The notes under the pieces: model-generated | Seen by the model: the letters and a program-made list of their open reading frames with translations, nothing else | The model's database searches: none | What the model was told of the DNA's origin: nothing | Part shown: positions 5,870 to 37,951 of the stretch, piece after piece | Numbering within the stretch: position 1 is the stretch's first letter | Layout: each line of letters opens with the position of its first letter | Made by a program: the position numbers and the translations under genes | Sequence record: MT813197 | Source of the DNA: Escherichia phage vB_EcoP_Kapi1 | Direction: 5' to 3' (one strand) | DNA: 39,436 nucleotides

Positions 5870-6043
5870 CGTTCACTCCGTCAAAAAAATTTCCCTCACA
5901 TTGGAGGGCAAAGAAGATTTCCAATAATCAGAACAAGTCGGCTCCTGTTTAGTTACGAGCGACATTGCTCCGTGTATTCACTCGTTGGAATGAATACACA
6001 GTGCAGTGTTTATTCTGTTGTTTATGCCAAAAATAAAGGACGA

Positions 6044-6667
6044 TTATGCGACCTCGGAAGGAAGTCCAATCATCTTATTCAAATCTTCTACCCGTAAAGC
6101 AGGAAGTGCTGTACTTGCTTTATCTGCTTCTTTTGGTAGCAACTCTTTGCTTTCAGGCCAAACTTCAATAAGTCGCTTAACTGTTGTGACTGAGTTCAAA
6201 GCAGCCCATACATTTGATTCGATATCCTTTTTCTTGGCTTCAAGTTTTTGTTGCAATGCGCAGATTTCATCAAACCTTTTTGTTATTTCGTGTTCTGCGC
6301 TAAACATGCATTTATCTTTGGTCGGAGTAGGGAGCAATATATCTTCGCCGTTGCCGTCTTTCCCATATGAATACCAGCCAACCCTTCTGCCAGATACAGT
6401 CAGATAAATTGAAGTTGAACGGGCATCGCATGAGTAAAATGAACATCCCAGCTTTTCAAGTTCTTCGCTTATAGCCATTAACTTGGATGATAACTGATCC
6501 ACTTCCTCAGTTTTCTTTTTACCGCCAAACACAACAACTCTGGCGTCAAGTGCAAGCTGGTTCTTTAACTTTGTTACTTCTTCAAGCTCAGTGAAAACCC
6601 CAGATTTAATTAAAGCGTTACGAGCGATTTTCTCTTTCATACTCGTTGTTAAGCGGATTGATGACAT
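6044..6667 (-). CDS. Hypothetical protein (207 aa)
   Basis: ORF 6044..6727; start moved to in-frame ATG at 6665-6667, which has a GAGAGG RBS. Confidence 0.5.
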   Translation of the reverse strand: MSSIRLTTSMKEKIARNALIKSGVFTELEEVTKLKNQLALDARVVVFGGKKKTEEVDQLSSKLMAISEELEKLGCSFYSCDARSTSIYLTVSGRRVGWYSYGKDGNGEDILLPTPTKDKCMFSAEHEITKRFDEICALQQKLEAKKKDIESNVWAALNSVTTVKRLIEVWPESKELLPKEADKASTALPALRVEDLNKMIGLPSEVA

Positions 6668-29085: not shown

Positions 29086-30429
29086 ATGGCTACTTGGCAA
29101 CAAGGAATCAACTCAGGCGGTTTTCTTGCTGGCATTGGTGCGCAAAACGAGAATGCGCCAAAGGCAAGCGACGTTAACGCAACGCTTGGTCTGATCCGCG
29201 AAAACAATGAACTGGCTCGCTCAGGTGCAAATAACGTTGGTCTGACCGCGTTACGTGGTCTGGCTGGAGTTGCTGATATTTATAAGCAGGAACAGCAACA
29301 GAAAGCGATTAATGCGTTCAATAAGGTTCATGCTGATGCATGGGCTTCTGGTGATCCATCGGGACTATTTAAGTTTGCCCAGGAAAATCCAGCGTTTGTT
29401 GCACAGGCACAACAGGCATTTTCCGGTCTTAATGAGCAGCAACGCAACGATATGGGCGATTTAGCCATGAGGGCTAACGTCGCTCTTTCTCAGGGACCGG
29501 AAGCCTACAGTAAATTCATTACTGACAACAAGGACAGGTTAAATCGCGTGGGAGCGAATGCTGACTGGATGATTCAGACAGGTATTCAGAATCCAGAGCA
29601 GCTATCACACATGCTGACCACTATGACGCTAGGGGCTGTTGGCCCGGATAAAATGCTGGATTATCAGGATAAGATGGTTGGTCGCCAACTTGAGAAAGGG
29701 CGATTGGATGAAAGCATCCGTCAGGCTGACATGGAGAACGCGAGAGGATGGGCAAATATCCAAAACGCTCAACTAGACAGGGCTCAGCGGGCACAAATGC
29801 ACTCAGATGAGATGGGATTGAAGCTAATGGAGCTGGGGCAAAAAGGTAAGCCGTCAGCAGACTTAATTAAGGGATTAAATTCTGATATTACCAATTTTGG
29901 CAAAAATTATAACTCTGTCAGAGCGGCGGCAAACTCTCTGCAAGCCCTTAGCAAGGTAAATACTGGCGCTGCCCAACTTGGGATTATCTTTAATTACATG
30001 AAGTCTCTCGACCCTCAGTCAGTTGTTCGCGAAGGTGAACAGGTTCAGGTCATGCGCTCTGATGGCATATGGGGGCAGATAAAAGGATATGTAGACCAGC
30101 TTAATGCAGGGAATGGCTTGTCACAGGAAGCGAGGGATAACATTGTTAACGCAGCCAAAATTAACGCCAACGCTATGGGGCAGCAGTTTAACCAGCAGGT
30201 AGACGAATATCTGGATACGTATGGAGATACTATTCCTCAAGGGCTGAAAAAAAGCTTAGGGAGAAGGAAGGCCAAGCTATTTGACGATGTCCCAGCGCAG
30301 CCTACACCACAAGGTGGTAATGGGCAGACAAAAGCTGCGCCAAGTGGGATATCAGAAGGCGCGACGGCAACGAACCCTAAAACTGGTCAGAAACTCATTT
30401 ATAGGAACGGACAATGGCAACCGATGTAG
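29086..30429 (+). CDS. Ejection protein (P22 gp20-like)
   Basis: 447 aa; position and composition. Confidence 0.7.
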
Positions 30430-32582
30430 GTTTACCCGAAGGATTTGTTCTCGATAATCAGCCTGATAACTCACAGCTTCCTGATGGTTTTGTGCTTGAT
30501 TCCCAACCAGAACAGCAGCAATCTCCTTTGGTTTCACCAGAGGAAAATTCCCGACAGGAAAATGTTGTTAATAATGCTAACGGTTTCGACCGTTTTATGT
30601 ATGGCGTTCTCAGTGGATTGATGGATGTTGGTAAAGGTGTTGGCCTGTTTCAGGATATGACACCAGAAGAGCAAGCCGCAATTCAGTCTCTACAGCAGAA
30701 GTTAGCGGCAAAACCATCAACCGCACAAGATGTTGGTGAGTTCGTTGGACAAGCAGCGCCATTTGTTAGTGGCGGTGGGATTATTTCTCAGGTTCCCAAA
30801 GGGGCGGCAAGGCTGGCTGCCGCCGCAGGGCTTGGTGCGGTTGAAGGTGGTGTTGTTGCTAACGGAACCGGTGGCAATGTAACTACAGGGGCGACTATAG
30901 GTGCTGCCGCTGGTCCAATTGCTGAATTGGCATCTCCAGTGATTAGTAAAGCAGTCAGTGCGGTTACGAAGAGGTTTAGGCCTCCATCGGCAGAAATGTC
31001 TCAGGCATCTGAACTTAGTGGAATGGCGAAGGTTGCAACGAAAGCTACAGATGTGAATCCAATAACAGGAAACAGATCTGGTTTGAATGCTCTCGCGGAA
31101 GCTGTTTCACCAGATGATTCTGTGCTACAGGCCGCCCGCAATCTTGGGATGGAGGATGCCTTAACTCCCGGCATGTACTCCAGCAACCCTTCTTACCGCG
31201 CGTTTGAAAATGCTTTAGCTGCAACCCCAGGTAATAAACTGTTCCACGCACAGAGAGAGGCCATTAGTAGGCTTGGAGAGCAGGCAGATAAATTTATTAA
31301 TGATTTTGGTGGGAGCGTTGATAAGGACTTTATCAATCAAAAGGTAAAAAGCTCTTATGAGGAGTTAAGATCAAAACTGAAGCGCCAAGAAGACACTCTA
31401 TACAATCAAATTAGAGCAAAAATTCCAACCAGAGCTACCGTAGATACCTCCCATACCACTAACGCCATTGAGGATATTGCAGATGATGTCGGTGGGCTAG
31501 AAAAACTAAAATCTCTATATCCTCAACTGTCAAAGACCTTGGAACAAATAGACCCAAACACCGCCCCGACTTATGGTCTTCTTGATGCAGTTCGACGGCA
31601 GGTTGGAAGGGCTCTTGGCAAAGAGATGGATAAAGGGCCATATAGCGGCATCGACGCTCGGCACCTTGGAATTCTTGAAAGCGCACTGATACAAGATCAA
31701 GGAGCCGCTGCTGCCAAATATGGTGCAGAGGATACATGGAATTTAGCTAGAGAGATCGGGAGAAAGAGATTCGCAGTACAGGCAGCCGCCATTCAAAATC
31801 TTGGCAGAGACCTGGATAAAGGAATAGTGCCGCAATTGCAGCAAGCTATCGTCGACATGTCTCAAGGAAAGGGCGGTGACTTCCGTCGCCTAGTTTCAAA
31901 TCTTCCTGATGACATGGTGCAACCAGCTGTTGCCACCGCAATGAATAGGGCTTTCACTACGTTCGCTAAATCTCCCGGGCAGTCACTCGGTGTTCCTGGA
32001 TTTGTTAAGTGGTATGGAGGTCTATCAAGAAACAAATCAAATATGCAGGCATTGAGCCGGGCAATTGGCTATCCGGCTACGCGTAGGTTGAGAAACATCT
32101 ATGAGGTGGCTTCTGGCATGCAAAGGGTGGGCAGCGAGAAGGTGTATTCCTCCTCTCAAATTGACCGGATGATGAATCAGTTCGCAGGAGAGAAGGGAAT
32201 GCTTGGGCGTATATATGGAATAGGAAAAGACGTGGCTAAAGCAGAGGGGCTAACCACTGCCATCGGAGCGCCGGGAGCCGGTACGGCAGGAGTACTCTTT
32301 AGCCTACTCCGTTCTGGTAAAAACTCAAGAATGGCTGCCGCTGATGAATTAATAGCATCTCCGGCTTTTAAAAATCTCTCAAAAAGGATTGCCGCAGGTC
32401 ACGCCAGCACTCCAGCCTCTAGGAAATCGGTGGATGCTTCAATGAAGAAAGTGAAACCATATAGGGATTGGGTAAATACGCTATCAGCGGACGAGAAGAA
32501 AAATCTAGCCCGCGTTGGTATTGTCGCTTTTCTCAGTAGTAACGATTCTTTGCCCACAGAGCAACAAGCAGGGCAACAATAA
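30414..32582 (+). CDS. Ejection protein (P22 gp16-like)
   Basis: 722 aa; last gene of ejection-protein triad. Confidence 0.7.
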
Positions 32583-32627
32583 TCGAACCGACTGTTACCA
32601 TATTAACCTCCCGATAGCCATGGATGG

Positions 32628-32939
32628 CTATTCTGACATCCTTTTTAATTTATTGTATGACTCTATAGAATCTGTGCACAACTTCATGAACTCTTGAAGT
32701 GACATTCCTAGGCGAGAAATTTCCGTATTCAAAAAACGTTCAATAAATTCATCTCCGCCTGGCATCTGGGTTGCTTCTTGAAAAGCAAACATTTGTTTAA
32801 ATGTTCCACACATACCAGCAACTTTAGCTGTAACTAACATGTCGTTAGCAAATTTCAGATCCTTATCTTGCGATTGTGCAAGACCACTAATTAGAAAACA
32901 GAATGCACCTATAACCCATCGCTTCACACCAACCACCAA
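32628..32939 (-). CDS. Small secreted (signal-peptide) protein of unknown function
   Basis: 103 aa; N-terminus MVVGVKRWVIGAFCFLISGLAQSQ looks like a Sec signal peptide; opposite strand to late operon at the P22 sieA position. Confidence 0.55.
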   Translation of the reverse strand: MVVGVKRWVIGAFCFLISGLAQSQDKDLKFANDMLVTAKVAGMCGTFKQMFAFQEATQMPGGDEFIERFLNTEISRLGMSLQEFMKLCTDSIESYNKLKRMSE

Positions 32940-32987
32940 CCTCCTTAGTTTTGTGCATGACGAAATTAACCAGCCATCAGGATGGTA

Positions 32988-33170
32988 TTAGTCACATTCT
33001 ATTTCTTTTGTCGACGTCCATACATAAGGGTCTGAGCAAACAACCTCTCCATTTATCATGACGTCATAGCCCATTAGATATGAGTTACCACCAACAATCT
33101 GAGCGGCGATGACGCTAATGCTGGCGGCGCAGGTTGCACCAAAAACGAAACCAATTAATATATTTTTCAT
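32988..33170 (-). CDS. Small membrane-anchored protein of unknown function
   Basis: 60 aa; N-terminal 25-residue hydrophobic segment, two Cys in the C-terminal tail. Confidence 0.5.
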
Positions 33171-33201
33171 TTTGATTCCAAATAGTTACAGGATGAAAGT
33201 T

Positions 33202-33387
33202 ATGACCATAGAAGAACGCCTGAACAACATTGAGTTGAACCAAACCTTGCTTGACCAGCGACTTTCAGATCTTGAGCTTAAAGATCTTGATGCGCAAATA
33301 TCAGAAGCAGAAGCCAAGCTCTCCAGCTTAAACCACCGCAAGAAGCAAATCCGCAACAGAATTACTCAGGGACGCGGAAGCTGTTGA
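33202..33387 (+). CDS. Hypothetical coiled-coil protein (61 aa)
   Basis: ATG at 33202 with AGGA RBS; ORF-track start 33109 overlaps the minus-strand gene. Confidence 0.45.
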   Translation: MTIEERLNNIELNQTLLDQRLSDLELKDLDAQISEAEAKLSSLNHRKKQIRNRITQGRGSC

Positions 33388-33571
33388 GGTGGGATGCAAG
33401 GTCTCTATCGTTAAAATCAAGGCTGCTAATCATTTCATTGTAAATAGCGTTTTTATCTTCCATTGGCAGTCTTGAGTAAACCAGACACAGAGCATATTTC
33501 AGGGAGTTTAGCTCTTTCTCTAGCTCTTCCTTGCTTGACGTTTTTGACTTAATAAACTGTTTTTTATTCAT
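33362..33571 (-). CDS. Hypothetical protein (69 aa) downstream of mnt-like gene
   Basis: Start overlaps mnt stop by 4 nt. Confidence 0.5.
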   Translation of the reverse strand: MNKKQFIKSKTSSKEELEKELNSLKYALCLVYSRLPMEDKNAIYNEMISSLDFNDRDLASHLNSFRVPE

Positions 33572-33804
33572 TTTGCATCCTTACCATACATGGTTTTCAG
33601 TGTTTCAAGCAGCGCATCCCTGAATTTGTCAGCCTCTTTCTGAGCAAATTCATTGCTATTAAGCGATCTACCACAAACAGCATCTTCGATAATCTGTATT
33701 ATTTCAGCATTCATGGAACGCTTGTTATGTTGCGCCCTGGCTTTAACCTTTTCCTTTAACTCTTTGGAAATCCTGATATTTATTTGCGGCTCTTCGCGTG
33801 ACAT
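33568..33804 (-). CDS. mnt: Mnt-like repressor (ribbon-helix-helix)
   Basis: [42 protein letters not shown] parallels P22 Mnt; GGAGG RBS before ATG at 33804. Confidence 0.8.
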   Translation of the reverse strand: MSREEPQINIRISKELKEKVKARAQHNKRSMNAEIIQIIEDAVCGRSLNSNEFAQKEADKFRDALLETLKTMYGKDAK

Positions 33805-34001
33805 ACCACCTCCATAGCATTTTGGTGATATTACTATTGTCAGATGCACCAAAGTACCCTTTGCGCATCCCATTAGAGGTTAAGTTAGCAATCGAGAAGT
33901 CAGCGAAAGAAAATGGTCGCTCAATAAATACCGAGATGGTAATGCGATTGGTGGATAGTTTAAGGCGGGATAGTTCTAAAGGTAATCTAGCAAAAAGTTG
34001 A
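33798..34001 (+). CDS. arc: Arc-like repressor (ribbon-helix-helix); start uncertain
   Basis: [38 protein letters not shown] parallels P22 Arc; candidate starts GTG 33798, GTG 33825, TTG 33837. Confidence 0.65.
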
Positions 34002-34063
34002 AGCCCCAACTGCGGGAACAGTCAGGGCTTCGGTATCAACAAATCGGCTTAGGAAATATTGAC

Positions 34064-34942
34064 ATGAAAAGTATAGCAAAGGCACAAAACGATTTCACCA
34101 TCTTCAAATTTGGCGACAGTGAAATTCGCGTCATTAACAAGTGCGGCGAGCCGTGGTTTGTAGCTAAAGATGTTTGTGATGCTTTAGCTTTGACTAACTC
34201 ACGCAAGGCACTTACTGCACTTGATGACGATGAAAAGGGAGTAACTTTAAGTTACACCCTTGGTGGTGAGCAGAATCTAAGCATTGTAAGCGAATCAGGT
34301 ATGTATACATTGGTTCTGCGCTGCCGCGATGCAGTCAATAAAGGTTCAGTCCCGCACAAATTCCGCAAGTGGGTAACAGCAGAAGTTCTGCCTTCAATTC
34401 GCAAACATGGCGAGTATGTGAAAGGCAAGAAAACCACTGTTGAGGAAAGAACACCGCTACGCGATGCAGTAAACATGCTGGTAGGAAAGAAAGGACTTCG
34501 CTATGACGATGCATACAATATGGTTCATCAGCGTTTTGGTATTGACAGCATTGATGAACTTTCAATTGAACAAATCCCGCTGGCCGTAGAGTACATCCAC
34601 AGGGTAGTGCTTGAAGGTGAGTTCATTGGCAAACAAGAGAAGAAAACCAACGAGCTTTCTGCAAAAGAAGCAAACAGCCTTGTATGGTTATGGGATTATG
34701 CCAACCGCTCACAGGCATTATTCCGCGAACTGTATCCGGCATTAAAACAAATTCAATCGAACTATTCCGGCAGATGCTACGACTACGGTCATGAGTTCTC
34801 GTATGTTATCGGAATGGCGAGAGACGTTTTAATCAATCACACACGAGATGTTGATATCAATGAGCCAGACGGACCAACGAATCTTTCCGCATGGATGAGA
34901 CTTAAGAATAAAGAATTACCTCCTTCAGTACATAACTACTGA
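34064..34942 (+). CDS. ant: Antirepressor Ant (BRO-N / KilA-N type)
   Basis: Start at MKSIAKAQ; motifs [32 protein letters not shown] parallel P22 Ant. Confidence 0.85.
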
Positions 34943-35042: not shown

Positions 35043-35105
35043 ATGACAGACATTACCTACTCAACAGATGGTCAGCAACCATGTTTGCTGCCTTATAAGC
35101 TATAG
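35043..35105 (+). pseudogene. Displaced ancestral 5' end of tailspike gene (MTDIT...), truncated after 20 codons
   Basis: ATGACAGACATTACC encodes MTDIT, which I recall as the canonical P22-family tailspike start; frame runs into the endonuclease gene and stops. Confidence 0.5.
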
Positions 35106-35553
35106 CCGCTTCATCAATGGTGTTGAATCTCCCAAGGGTTATGTTTTTACCTGAGACATTTATCTGAGCTTGCCATTGATTTCTGGCTTGACAGAAAGTT
35201 ACCCCCTTGATTCCAGCATTGCTATTTCGAGGTCCGACATTTAATGCATTTACGACTCTGCTGACATCCCTAAGGTTTGAGATTGCGTTATTTCTTCTGT
35301 TTCTATCAATGTGGTCAATCTCTTGTTTGGGCCATTCGCCATATACATACAGCCAGGCAAGTCTATGTGCAAAATATCTTACGCCATCAATATTAATTGC
35401 GTTATATCCATAAGAAATTGTGCCAGCAACTTTCCCAACAGCACCTCTGGCGCTTAATTTCTTTTTCCAAGTGAAAATTCCTGTTTCTTTATTGTAATCG
35501 AGAACCTCCATAAGGCGCTCCCGAGTTACTACCTCGTGACGTCTCTTACTCAT
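35053..35553 (-). CDS. HNH homing endonuclease with AP2 DNA-binding domain
   Basis: 166 aa from MSKRRHEV (GGAG RBS); HNH_3-like core [30 protein letters not shown]2-like C-terminus [15 protein letters not shown]. Confidence 0.8.
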
Positions 35554-35566
35554 TATTTTCTCCGGA

Positions 35567-37951
35567 ATGTTTATTATGCCAGAACAATTATACAACGTAG
35601 TTGTTTCACAACCAAGTCAGTTATTTACTTTAGCTCGCTCGTTTAAAGCAAATGCCAATGGCAAAATTTATATCGGTAAAATTGACACTGACCCGGTAAA
35701 TCCAGAAAACCAGATTCAGGTTTATGTAGAGAACGAAGACGGCTCTCACGTTCCTGTTTCGCAACCAATCATCATTAACGCTGCCGGATATCCGGTATAT
35801 AACGGACAGATTGCCAAATTCGTTACCGTGCAAGGCCATTCTATGGCTGTTTATGATGCGTATGGTGCGCAGCAGTTTTATTTTCCCAATGTGCTAAAAT
35901 ATGATCCAGATCAGCTGGACGTAAGACTTTCATCTCCATATGGAACATCGTATATTCATCATAATGGTGAGAACGCTGTAGATGTTCCACTTAATAAGTA
36001 TCTGGCATGGCGTAATGGAGATATCTCCGCCTTCGGAGGTAAATATAACGACTCAGCTTCTGGAGATCTGAATAAATCTGCATTTGCAGAAATGGAATCA
36101 ACCTTCGGAGGAGTGCGCTTGAACCTGATGGGTAAGTCTGTTTATATTCCAGATGAAATGAATCTACAGGTATCAAATATAGAAATATGGGGTGGTGGGA
36201 ATATTATGGCAGGCGCAGGCTACGCCTTCTTCCTAAAAGAAGGTGGAAGTGTAACTGCAAAGAACTTCCATATTGAAGGAGTGTCTTCAGATTATCCTAG
36301 GCTAGTTGGAAGTATTCAAGGTGTTGCTTACAAAATCAAAGATATCTCTTACAGTCACTTCACTACCAAAGGACGCGTTATTCTTTTTGCTGGGCTTGGT
36401 AACACTATCTATCCAGCGGTTAATCCAGAAGTTACAGGATATGGATGTAATTCTGTAAAGATTTCACACTTTCACTCTGAGTCACCTGTAGATTATATTG
36501 TTTCTTTACAGGATTTCCCGTTCAGTACGCTTGAGGTAGCAAACTTCACTGTACACAACATGGCGGGGACATTCATAAATGCAGGGATAACCAACGAGAA
36601 CCCTTACGAACGCCAATTGCAAAGAGCGATGGAGTTGGTATCAATCCACGACTACACCGTTGAAAATGAAGACAGTTTTTGGGCTGATGGTAACTACGCT
36701 TACACCACAATAGGTGTTTGCGAGTGCTGGAATCTCAATCACTATAACGGAACTCAAAGAGGGGTAAAGGTCAGGAACTCAGGAAATTCCTATTACGATC
36801 TGTACAATGGCTCTCATCTTGTCGCTGAGCGAGATATAACAGTAGTAGACGGTTATGTGTGGAATGATTGGCATCTGTCCCCTCATAAGATAAAAAACGC
36901 TTATCAGTACACTAGCCAAAATAAGCGCTGGTACTATACTCGAGACTATATAGCCAGAATTAAGGCTCTGTTTCCTGGTGTCGATGAAACAAAATCAACT
37001 GGTTCATTCTTCTATCCAGAAACTCAGGACTGGCACAACGAAACTACCGGGCCTTTGGAATATGGCAACCGTTTCATTCACATCGACAATTGCGACATTG
37101 AACTTATCAGACTTGGTTTGGTGCATGGTAATGCCGTTAATACAAATATAAGGATAACTAACAATCACTTTAGTTCACTATCTACACTGCGTACAAACTT
37201 CATGCAGGTAGCCAATTACCCATACAACATATATCAGCAGATCACATTCAAAGACAATAGACTTGATTTGCCAAAAGCTACCGTAAGCGGAATACTTAAA
37301 ATGCTTAACGGTGGTGAAGCAGGAGGAGGAGGATTTACTGGTGTCGTGGATATTTCTGGCAATGTTGGTAGATTTGATAATCTTATCGTATTTGACGATT
37401 TCACCACCGTGTCAAGTCTGTATGCAAACATGATGCTCTCACTGAGAAACAATGATTTTGTCTCTACGACCAACTGCTATCTGACAGGTGATGGCGTGCA
37501 AACAAGTCAGTTCGACGCCTCTGTATGCGACAAAAATTTCCTCAGTGGGGCGTCAGTCAAGATCGGTGCTCTGTGGAATACCCAGGGAAGAATCGAAGTA
37601 GGTGCGGTTATTAACTCATTTTCACCAGTGATATTGTTTGATGTTGGCATCCCGACAACAATGAATGTTGCTACAGGTGATAGGTATATTAACATTGATA
37701 ATGGGTCATCCGGGGTGCGAGTTATCAAGTTCACCATTTCGAAGGATGCTAATTCTACAAGCATTACCTTTACAGATGGAGCAGGAACGCAAGTAACTAA
37801 AAAAACAGGCACAGATAATGGAACCTTTTCAGTTAATGTAGGGGCATCAGCTGGATTTGCTGTAAATTGCATTGTTTCCTCCACAGGAGTTTCAATACAG
37901 ACAGCTTCTTCACTTAGACAGCGCTTTATCATCTCTGGATATACTGTATGA
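35567..37951 (+). CDS. Tailspike protein (P22-like N-terminal head-binding domain, distinct receptor-binding domain)
   Basis: 794 aa; residues 9-110 ([40 protein letters not shown]...) parallel P22 gp9 N-domain; first 8 residues replaced by insertion-derived sequence. Confidence 0.85.

Follow-up and report, generated by a model that had tools for sequence, protein, structure and literature searches.

Two small, putatively exported proteins encoded in the sieA region of a P22-like Escherichia phage are candidate envelope-level protection factors

The 39,436-nucleotide genome of Escherichia phage vB_EcoP_Kapi1 (MT813197; hereafter the window) carries four small open reading frames (ORFs), designated w103, w60, w61 and w69, at positions 32583-33571. 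The comparative evidence presented here indicates that this locus is a further mosaic variant of the P22-like ant moron, and that w103 and w60, both read leftward, are good candidates for protection factors of a new kind acting at the envelope. In the reading that we prefer, tentatively and at slightly less than an even chance, the leftward arm comprises two independent cargo genes that would be expressed from the prophage and would encode small, Sec-exported periplasmic proteins, probably disulfide-bonded, contributing to envelope protection of the lysogen. The exclusion gene sieA is carried by only about one third of sequenced P22-like phages (PMC10883804), and what fills its slot in the others is largely unstudied. 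One such filler, w103, is shown here to be swapped in exactly at the sieA start codon, and it belongs to a sizeable, unnamed family of putatively exported proteins whose genes travel on mobile elements of very different kinds.

In P22-like phages, the ant moron, a term of Villafane, Casjens and colleagues, is the highly variable block that separates gene 16 from gene 9 (PMC2629481), which in P22 comprises immI (mnt, arc, sar and ant), sieA, hkcC and orf59a (PMC2629481; P22 annotation). The window shows the same framework, with a gp16-like ejection gene (30414-32582, plus strand) to the left of the locus and mnt-, arc- and ant-like genes to its right, in agreement with the first-pass annotation, which had placed the locus between the last ejection gene and immI. 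All four ORFs it listed were found: w103 (32628-32939), w60 (32988-33170) and w69 (33362-33571) lie on the minus strand, and w61 (33202-33387) lies on the late-operon strand, antisense to the proposed leftward transcript. The window version of the moron differs in its cargo, as w103, w60, w61 and w69 are without description in PMC2629481 or PMC10883804. The genes are patchily present and bounded by sharp mosaic junctions, with breakpoints at 32934, 32960 and 33201 and several arrangements among the related loci L021-L029, and the 33201/33202 breakpoint recurs among E. coli prophages. Salmonella phage Emek (NC_018275.1; L057:2587-3460, plus strand) has other cargo in the interval from gene 16 to orf61, namely a minus-strand homologue of Sf6 gene 38 followed by two plus-strand genes, a DUF4065 gene and orf161, with an annotated terminator at the end. 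Position 33201/33202 in the window is thereby shown to be a general cargo junction. The stretch over 32583-33571 is 100% identical to a P22-like prophage in E. coli MP1, where the Prokaryotic Genome Annotation Pipeline (PGAP) calls all four ORFs hypothetical proteins.

w103 is placed in the sieA ORF slot with base precision. The 27 nucleotides (nt) at 32934-32960 are 96% identical to the leader immediately upstream of P22 sieA, and the w103 leader as a whole (32928-32960, minus strand) contains a Shine-Dalgarno sequence, AAGGAGG, at 32940-32946 and a 7-nt duplication (TTGGTGG) relative to P22 and to the IMG/VR contig L021. In L021 and in a second IMG/VR contig, L023, ~130 nt upstream of w103 are near-identical to the P22 sieA upstream region, and the region common to P22, L021 and L023 holds the annotated PsieA stretch, the AAGGAGGTTGGT leader and, read in the opposite direction, the beginning of hkcC. 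In both contigs, the switch from sieA (GTG TCT GAT...) to w103 (GTG AAG CGA TGG...) takes place exactly at the start codon, the w103 GTG standing at the place of the sieA GTG, 5 nt past the common Shine-Dalgarno sequence. These data agree with the earlier placement of the genes at the sieA position, w103 lying leftward between genes 16 and 9 behind a sieA leader. Because the switch in the sibling contigs falls exactly there, GTG 32927 is the most likely start of w103, and this type of start (MKRW...) is also used in annotations of the Salmonella homologue. The gene would hence span 32628-32927 (minus strand) and encode a precursor of 99 amino acids (aa; MKRWVIG...); the ORF reported earlier is real, whereas its length of 103 aa reflects a mechanical reading up to TTG 32939 and is probably too long. 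The P22 record (NC_002371; L009:4862-5227, plus strand) also contains, in the sieA-orf59a interval, a 121-aa ORF with a HECAH (HExxH) motif that is unannotated there and presumably corresponds to hkcC; it matches PHROG 1365, is conserved in Morganella, L021 and L023, and overlaps at its start with PsieA as annotated on the opposite strand.

Alignment with L023 revealed a deletion in the window. Minus-strand positions 33608 to 32957 align with L023:3970-4621 and positions 32960 to 32500 with L023:5264-5717, both at ~97% identity, such that L023:4622-5263 (642 base pairs, bp), which holds orf59a, a plus-strand hkcC ORF with the HExxH motif and PsieA, is absent from the window. The deletion junction maps to 32957-32960 and displays 4 nt of microhomology. 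In L023, the element following w60 is a clean hairpin with a 7-bp stem and a T-run (-12.9 kcal/mol, z = -4.9), whereas its counterpart in the window, located just past the w60 stop codon (32960-32986, minus strand), is a degenerate terminator-like hairpin with a stem mismatch and an interrupted T-run (-8.5 kcal/mol, z = -1.45). No terminator-like site was found on the minus strand from mnt to the end of w103, the sole such site being a weak one on the plus strand in the w103 interior. Because the 642-bp deletion removed PsieA, the hairpin is weakened and no minus-strand terminator was detected, we infer that the four genes mnt, w69, w60 and w103 have become a single leftward operon transcribed from Pmnt. 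The first gene of this putative operon is the mnt-like gene (33568-33804, minus strand), which encodes a ribbon-helix-helix repressor of the Arc fold; its stop codon is overlapped by the w69 start over 4 nt (ATGA), supporting the proposed co-transcription of w69 with mnt. w60 is preceded by a 31-nt leader (33171-33201, minus strand).

Mnt maintains lysogeny in P22. A 4-nt overlap with the mnt stop codon is seen for w103 homologues in Citrobacter freundii, in the IMG/VR L031 group and in the E. coli O104:H4 2011C-3493 prophage, and for a w60 homologue in Citrobacter sp. C411. On one contig, a distant w103-family member sits directly downstream of a cI-like S24 repressor gene, and other members are found in the immunity region of Pseudomonas-type lambdoid phages. 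Expression of w103 and w60 in the lysogen, as envisaged in the first-pass annotation, is likely, given these overlaps with the mnt stop and the family member placed after the cI-like repressor gene; this comparative evidence goes together with an orientation opposite to the late operon. In phage epsilon34, a published list of genes for which prophage expression is expected includes the mnt homologue (PMC2629481), and P22 sieA is expressed from the prophage (PMC10883804).

The four ORFs are real genes, conserved beyond chance. Each matches its own PHROG family of unassigned function (E 3e-27 to 5e-51), w103 corresponding to PHROG 19844 and w60 to PHROG 37095. In a large protein database, w103 homologues, which come from E. 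coli, Salmonella, Citrobacter and Morganella, form 14 clusters when grouped at 90% identity, and keep length, pattern and two invariant cysteines down to 43% identity; w60 homologues also fall into 14 clusters, reach down to 46% identity and are nearly all 60-61 aa long, with an invariant CSDPY motif and two conserved cysteines; and w61 homologues are still exactly 61 aa long down to ~72% identity. We take the ORFs as genes because of the PHROG matches and because, for the three searched (w103, w60 and w61), length is kept in homologues of lower identity. w61 and w69 together make up a conserved backbone unit. The product of w69 has no hydrophobic segment and is probably cytoplasmic. The w61 ORF, described earlier as convergent and coiled-coil, is real and its 3' end overlaps that of w69 by 26 nt, whereas its coiled coil corresponds to weak, sub-threshold matches to coiled-coil-type families only.

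PGAP annotates in many E. coli genomes a plus-strand "hemolysin XhlA family protein" of 89 to 92 aa, antisense to w60 (33109-33387 here), and if this 92-aa ORF were the real gene, w60 would not be one. The weak Pfam match to XhlA (PF10779; E=0.056) scores 14.1 bits, far under the 34.7-bit cut-off, an NCBIfam scan of the 92-aa form returned no XhlA match, and no hydrophobic C-terminal segment is present in the w61 sequence. Furthermore, the size range and the CSDPY motif of w60 persist down to 46% identity, w61 homologues stay exactly 61 aa long where the upstream DNA differs (L028, L029), and in Citrobacter sp. C411 the w60 homologue stands alone, overlapping the mnt stop, with no w61 gene called there. 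We therefore reject w61 or its 92-aa form as XhlA and regard displacement of w60 by this ORF as very improbable; the PGAP call looks like a recurrent mis-annotation.

The w103 protein belongs to a large family. A profile search of 1.84 billion representative proteins returned 282 matches at E<=1e-3 and 207 at E<=1e-10, the family counts referring to clusters at 50% identity (about 280); lengths are mostly 95-125 aa among the matches listed. In an alignment of 62 diverse members, which share only 28-48% identity with the window protein, G42, C44, E73 and C88 (103-aa ORF numbering) are invariant and K39, G45, F53, Q54, T57, G61, G62, F65, R68, F69, R76 and Y95 are near-invariant, yielding the consensus AK..G.CG...Q...FQ..TKMPGGDEF..RF..TEAARLG...C...Y. 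A strongly hydrophobic N-terminal segment precedes the domain in 145 of the 151 members having an N-terminal region. In w103, the hydropathy pattern fits a Sec-type signal peptide of ~17 residues, predicted to be cut between ...SGLA and QSQ to leave a mature part of ~82 aa, in keeping with the cleavable-looking signal peptide and two cysteines noted earlier and, together with the N-terminal segment of w60, with the suggested targeting of both proteins to the envelope. The lipobox [LVI][ASTVI][GAS]C is absent from w103 (...LISGLA followed by Q, with no Cys at +1), and a few distant family members have lipobox-like ends (e.g. P0132). The AlphaFold2 model of w103 folds as three helices with a mean predicted local distance difference test score (pLDDT) of 84, exceeding 90 over the mature domain. 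We conclude that w103 represents an unnamed family of ~100-aa proteins predicted to be exported, which combine a signal peptide with a three-helix domain and two invariant cysteines.

Searches against characterized families bore out the statement of no resemblance to SieA or a known family for w103 and w60. No Pfam family matched any of the 62 aligned w103-family members at E<=0.01, and none of them matched the Pfam profiles of Ivy, MliC/PliC, LprI/DUF1311, Tai4 or HdeA. Pfam, NCBIfam, PADLOC and PHROGs returned nothing with known function for w103, w60, w61 or w69; the PADLOC matches were at chance level (12.1-16.2 bits), comprising one for w103 (E=0.0044 over 26 residues) and those of w61 to PbeC (E=0.00072) and JetC (E=0.0075), with no match for w60 or w69. 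Sequence-profile searches of the PDB with the alignments A3 (w103 family) and A2 gave chance matches only. Foldseek comparison of the w103 model returned best E-values of 1.4 against the PDB and 0.74 against BFVD, using a query in which the signal peptide was kept inside a long first helix, which may blur matches. Structure prediction and remote-homology search thus assign to w103 a three-helix model and no named family.

The 60-aa w60 precursor had been described as carrying a hydrophobic anchor. Its N-terminus displays the n/h/c layout of a signal peptide, with MKN, a hydrophobic stretch and SISVIA followed by A, and a predicted cut after residue 22, and among homologues the -3 position is V or A, -2 is bulky and -1 is A, that is, a conserved [V/A]-x-A site preceding A. 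Because of this layout and conserved site, we somewhat favour cleavage as a signal peptide over the anchor originally proposed. The conservation of G7 and G11, unusual in a signal peptide, speaks for the anchor reading. C14 is preceded by G-A-T and is not conserved, and the protein has no lipobox. The C-terminal domain is ~38 aa long and acidic and is predicted to form four short strands; C45, C59 and the C-terminus are conserved, and this two-cysteine domain is predicted to face the periplasm whether the N-terminus is cleaved or anchored. We also identified, on a 1362-nt JGI metagenome contig, a 49-aa protein (P0028) joining a window-type Arc N-terminus to the w60 C-terminus; this fusion reflects either a genuine rearrangement or a chimeric assembly.

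SieA is a polytopic inner-membrane protein of at least 164 aa with a cytoplasmic FxRYPxEAxxFNK motif (PMC10883804). w103 resembles P22 SieA in the slot, strand, leader and Shine-Dalgarno sequence of its gene (and, in L021 and L023, in the upstream region with the annotated PsieA), in being prophage cargo of the ant moron and in having a product predicted to be directed to the envelope. In contrast to SieA, w103 and w60 each contain a single N-terminal hydrophobic segment and lack the FxRYPxEAxxFNK motif; w103 is a predicted soluble three-helix periplasmic protein of ~82 aa and the w60 domain comprises ~38 aa; and the w103 family extends far outside P22-like phages and can adjoin a SieA-like gene. 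Neither w103 nor w60 gave a BLAST match to P22 SieA or a match to PHROG 7745, the family matched by P22 SieA and by a Citrobacter 204-aa protein.

T4 Spackle (Sp, gp61.3) is, in its mature form, a small, helical, disulfide-containing periplasmic protein that stops superinfection because it inhibits gp5, the tail lysozyme of the incoming phage. Like Spackle, w103 is predicted to be made as a ~100-aa precursor with a Sec signal peptide, and Spackle is the nearest analogue for a possible mode of action of w103. Homology between the two was rejected: hhalign of A3 against T4 Sp gave a probability of 3% over 8 columns, all within the signal peptide, and Spackle is not among the listed fold matches of the w103 model. 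The two also differ in setting, as Spackle comes from a lytic phage and is expressed early, whereas w103 is prophage cargo. Cor, T5 Llp and TP-J34 Ltp are likewise small phage or prophage envelope proteins through which entry is blocked from outside the cytoplasm; unlike them, w103 and w60 are devoid of a lipobox, and no sequence relation to them was detected.

The distribution of w103 and its relatives is that of mobile cargo. Across 20 P22-like viral contigs, the w103-family gene is always leftward and faces or lies near gene 16, while the intervening genes on the mnt side vary. Its companions include a 161-aa lipoprotein (E. coli O104:H4 and the L031 group), a secreted 104-aa protein together with a 154-aa lipoprotein (Morganella) and, in Citrobacter, the SieA-like 204-aa protein (PHROG 7745, E=2e-6), whose gene lies immediately downstream of the w103-family gene. 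In the O104:H4 outbreak strain 2011C-3493 (NC_018658.1; L058:3883-4956), a P22-like prophage contains mnt, a 104-aa w103 homologue whose start provides the 4-nt overlap with the mnt stop described above, and the 161-aa lipoprotein gene (PHROG 6067), the cargo genes facing gene 16. Beyond P22-like phages, family genes occur as an opposite-strand insertion in a Mu/P2-like baseplate cluster and between large internal-protein genes, at the end of a Pseudomonas prophage, where the neighbours are an endolysin-type hydrolase gene and a tailspike-like gene, in a P4-like island of Limnobaculum that also has Bro-N and primase genes, and in chromosomal islets of Yersinia and Nitrosomonas. In Methylophaga sp. 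41_12_T18 (L017:4007-7200), the family gene is the second cassette after an IntI-type integrase, with attC-like sites (RYYYAAC...GTTRRRY) at about 5893-5967 and 6296-6400.

The w103 family is rare in isolates. It was found in 1 of 50,697 phage genomes, and the 5,426 complete E. coli genomes contain 7 close and 18 distant copies; tblastn detected no w103 relative in 72,556 plasmids and no w60 match in the 50,697 phage genomes. In the phage collection searched, the cargo occurs only in Emek (w61 and w69) and in S.Kent 1-2-1 (w61 and a distant w103 homologue). The first-pass annotation had presented w103 and w60 as a pair. They are not a functional pair because each occurs without the other: L028 and L029 have w103 without w60, many E. 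coli prophage remnants have w60 without w103, and w60 is present in 36 E. coli genomes versus 7 with a close w103 copy. An obligate two-gene system was rejected on this independent distribution.

These observations can be assembled into the following mechanism. In the lysogen, mnt, w69, w60 and w103 would lie on one leftward transcript from Pmnt, and the w103 and w60 products would reach the periplasm and be oxidised by DsbA. w103 would be a soluble three-helix protein whose invariant residues fall in helix 1 (AK..G.CG), in the turn between helix 1 and helix 2 (FQ..TKMPGGDEF) and in helix 2 (RF...E..R.G), and this invariant surface would bind a target conserved across Proteobacteria. As a soluble periplasmic binder, it would act in superinfection exclusion or neutralise an incoming wall-degrading or membrane-crossing activity, working like T4 Spackle or SieA while being unrelated to either; w60 would act separately, as another factor of broadly this type. 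For w103, a role in envelope-level lysogen protection, that is, superinfection exclusion in the broad sense, is possible but falls somewhat short of probable. We propose it because the slot is a known site for an exclusion gene (PMC10883804), the neighbouring cargo consistently consists of envelope proteins, family members occupy prophage-expressed positions, and prophages, satellites and integrons typically carry defence genes.

Several results weigh against this proposal. No sigma-70-like promoter for w60 or w103 was found in the window, and their expression would depend on read-through across 190 nt antisense to w61. The signal-peptide calls for both proteins come from inspection by eye, hydropathy and alignment pattern only, and the w60 model has a low-confidence pLDDT of 70 overall (~80 over the C-terminal part). 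Neither protein showed sequence likeness, and w103 showed no fold likeness, to exclusion, inhibitor or immunity proteins already known. In Citrobacter, the w103 family occurs together with a SieA-like gene, so that w103 is not a simple replacement of SieA, and it is also found in phage types without P22-type ejection proteins and in an integron, which makes a P22-specific injection block unlikely. gp16 and gp20 are extremely diverse (22-26% identity; PMC10883804), in contrast to the conservation of the w103 family across hosts, and a conserved host or enzyme target fits better. One example would be a wall hydrolase used for entry, by a Spackle-like mechanism. The wider proposition, namely that the w103 proteins constitute a new and widespread anti-phage or anti-invasion class, soluble in the periplasm and acting on a conserved target at an envelope-crossing step, with w60 as a second, minimal (~38 aa) factor, is more speculative and, in our estimation, on the unlikely side. 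If the family does exclude phages or neutralise wall attack, it would provide a new mechanism, soluble and periplasmic, that is present in Enterobacteriaceae, in Pseudomonas and in further Proteobacteria (Methylophaga, Nitrosomonas); if it has no such role, the locus is an ordinary set of prophage ORFans. The question is easy to address for w103, for which a single ~300-bp gene should suffice.

Some of the same data can be read as lysogenic conversion or host fitness rather than exclusion, w103 being an orphan periplasmic immunity or inhibitor protein or a stress factor and w60 a fitness peptide. The targets of w103 would then be a type VI secretion system amidase or muramidase, a bacteriocin or host lysozyme. 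Such a role would accommodate the spread of the family far beyond P22-like phages (the Methylophaga integron cassette, the P4-like island, the Yersinia and Nitrosomonas islets and the Pseudomonas prophages), its lack of redundancy with SieA, given that the two coexist in Citrobacter, and a loop so strongly conserved across distant taxa that it suggests an enzyme or host target rather than fast-evolving phage proteins. The host of the identical prophage, E. coli MP1, is a mouse gut commensal, which we also count on this side. A confirmed LRAT (NlpC/P60-type) gene in Pseudomonas (L020:6699-7280, plus strand), ~400 nt from a w103-family gene, and a 181-aa ORF with an HIGIY motif ~1.7 kb from another (L050:2413-2958, minus strand), LRAT-like by eye only, are either a possible hint of a link to wall-active enzymes or a coincidence; with one confirmed locus and one similar-looking locus behind it, a role of w103 as effector-immunity partner of LRAT-type genes would be speculative. 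These points are to be set against the lack of sequence or fold likeness to Ivy, MliC/PliC, LprI, Tai or Tsi proteins (Pfam being empty and the best PDB Foldseek E-value being 1.4), the absence of an adjacent toxin gene in nearly all w103-family loci and the absence of relatives from all 72,556 plasmids. We judge conversion or fitness cargo to be unlikely, though a serious contender.

A role in the lytic cycle of the phage, for instance through periplasmic control of the endolysin, the spanin, the virion wall hydrolase or conduit assembly, appears improbable. w103 and w60 do abut ejection-protein genes, family members lie beside an endolysin-type hydrolase gene in Pseudomonas prophages and within tail or internal-protein clusters (L047, L048), and P22 sieA itself is upregulated on induction (PMC10883804). 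However, w103 and w60 invariably run against the direction of the late genes that flank them, their homologues are found overlapping the mnt stop codon or next after a cI-like repressor gene, one family member is an integron cassette without a phage around it, and prophages that are nearly identical in other respects differ in having or lacking the genes.

The remaining features of the region belong to its flanks. Upstream of the gp16-like gene lies a gp20-like ejection gene (29086-30429, plus strand). On the other side, the arc-like repressor gene (33825-34001, plus strand), divergent from mnt and with a real start maybe at TTG 33837, is followed by ant (encoding Bro-N and P22_AR_C domains), a minus-strand HNH-AP2 endonuclease gene and the tailspike gene. 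The product of the endonuclease gene (35053-35595), located between ant and the tailspike gene, combines HNH_3 and AP2 domains, an architecture typical of homing endonucleases. The mnt-like and arc-like starts are separated by only ~20-32 nt (around 33804-33837) versus ~90 nt in P22; therefore, either the divergent Pmnt and Pant and their operators overlap coding sequence or the starts are mis-set. Finally, positions 33994-34079 are 84% identical to the P22 sar antisense-RNA region and contain, in the arc/ant interval, a minus-strand 14-bp terminator-like hairpin (34000-34031); with both identity and hairpin retained, sar control of ant therefore seems to be kept.

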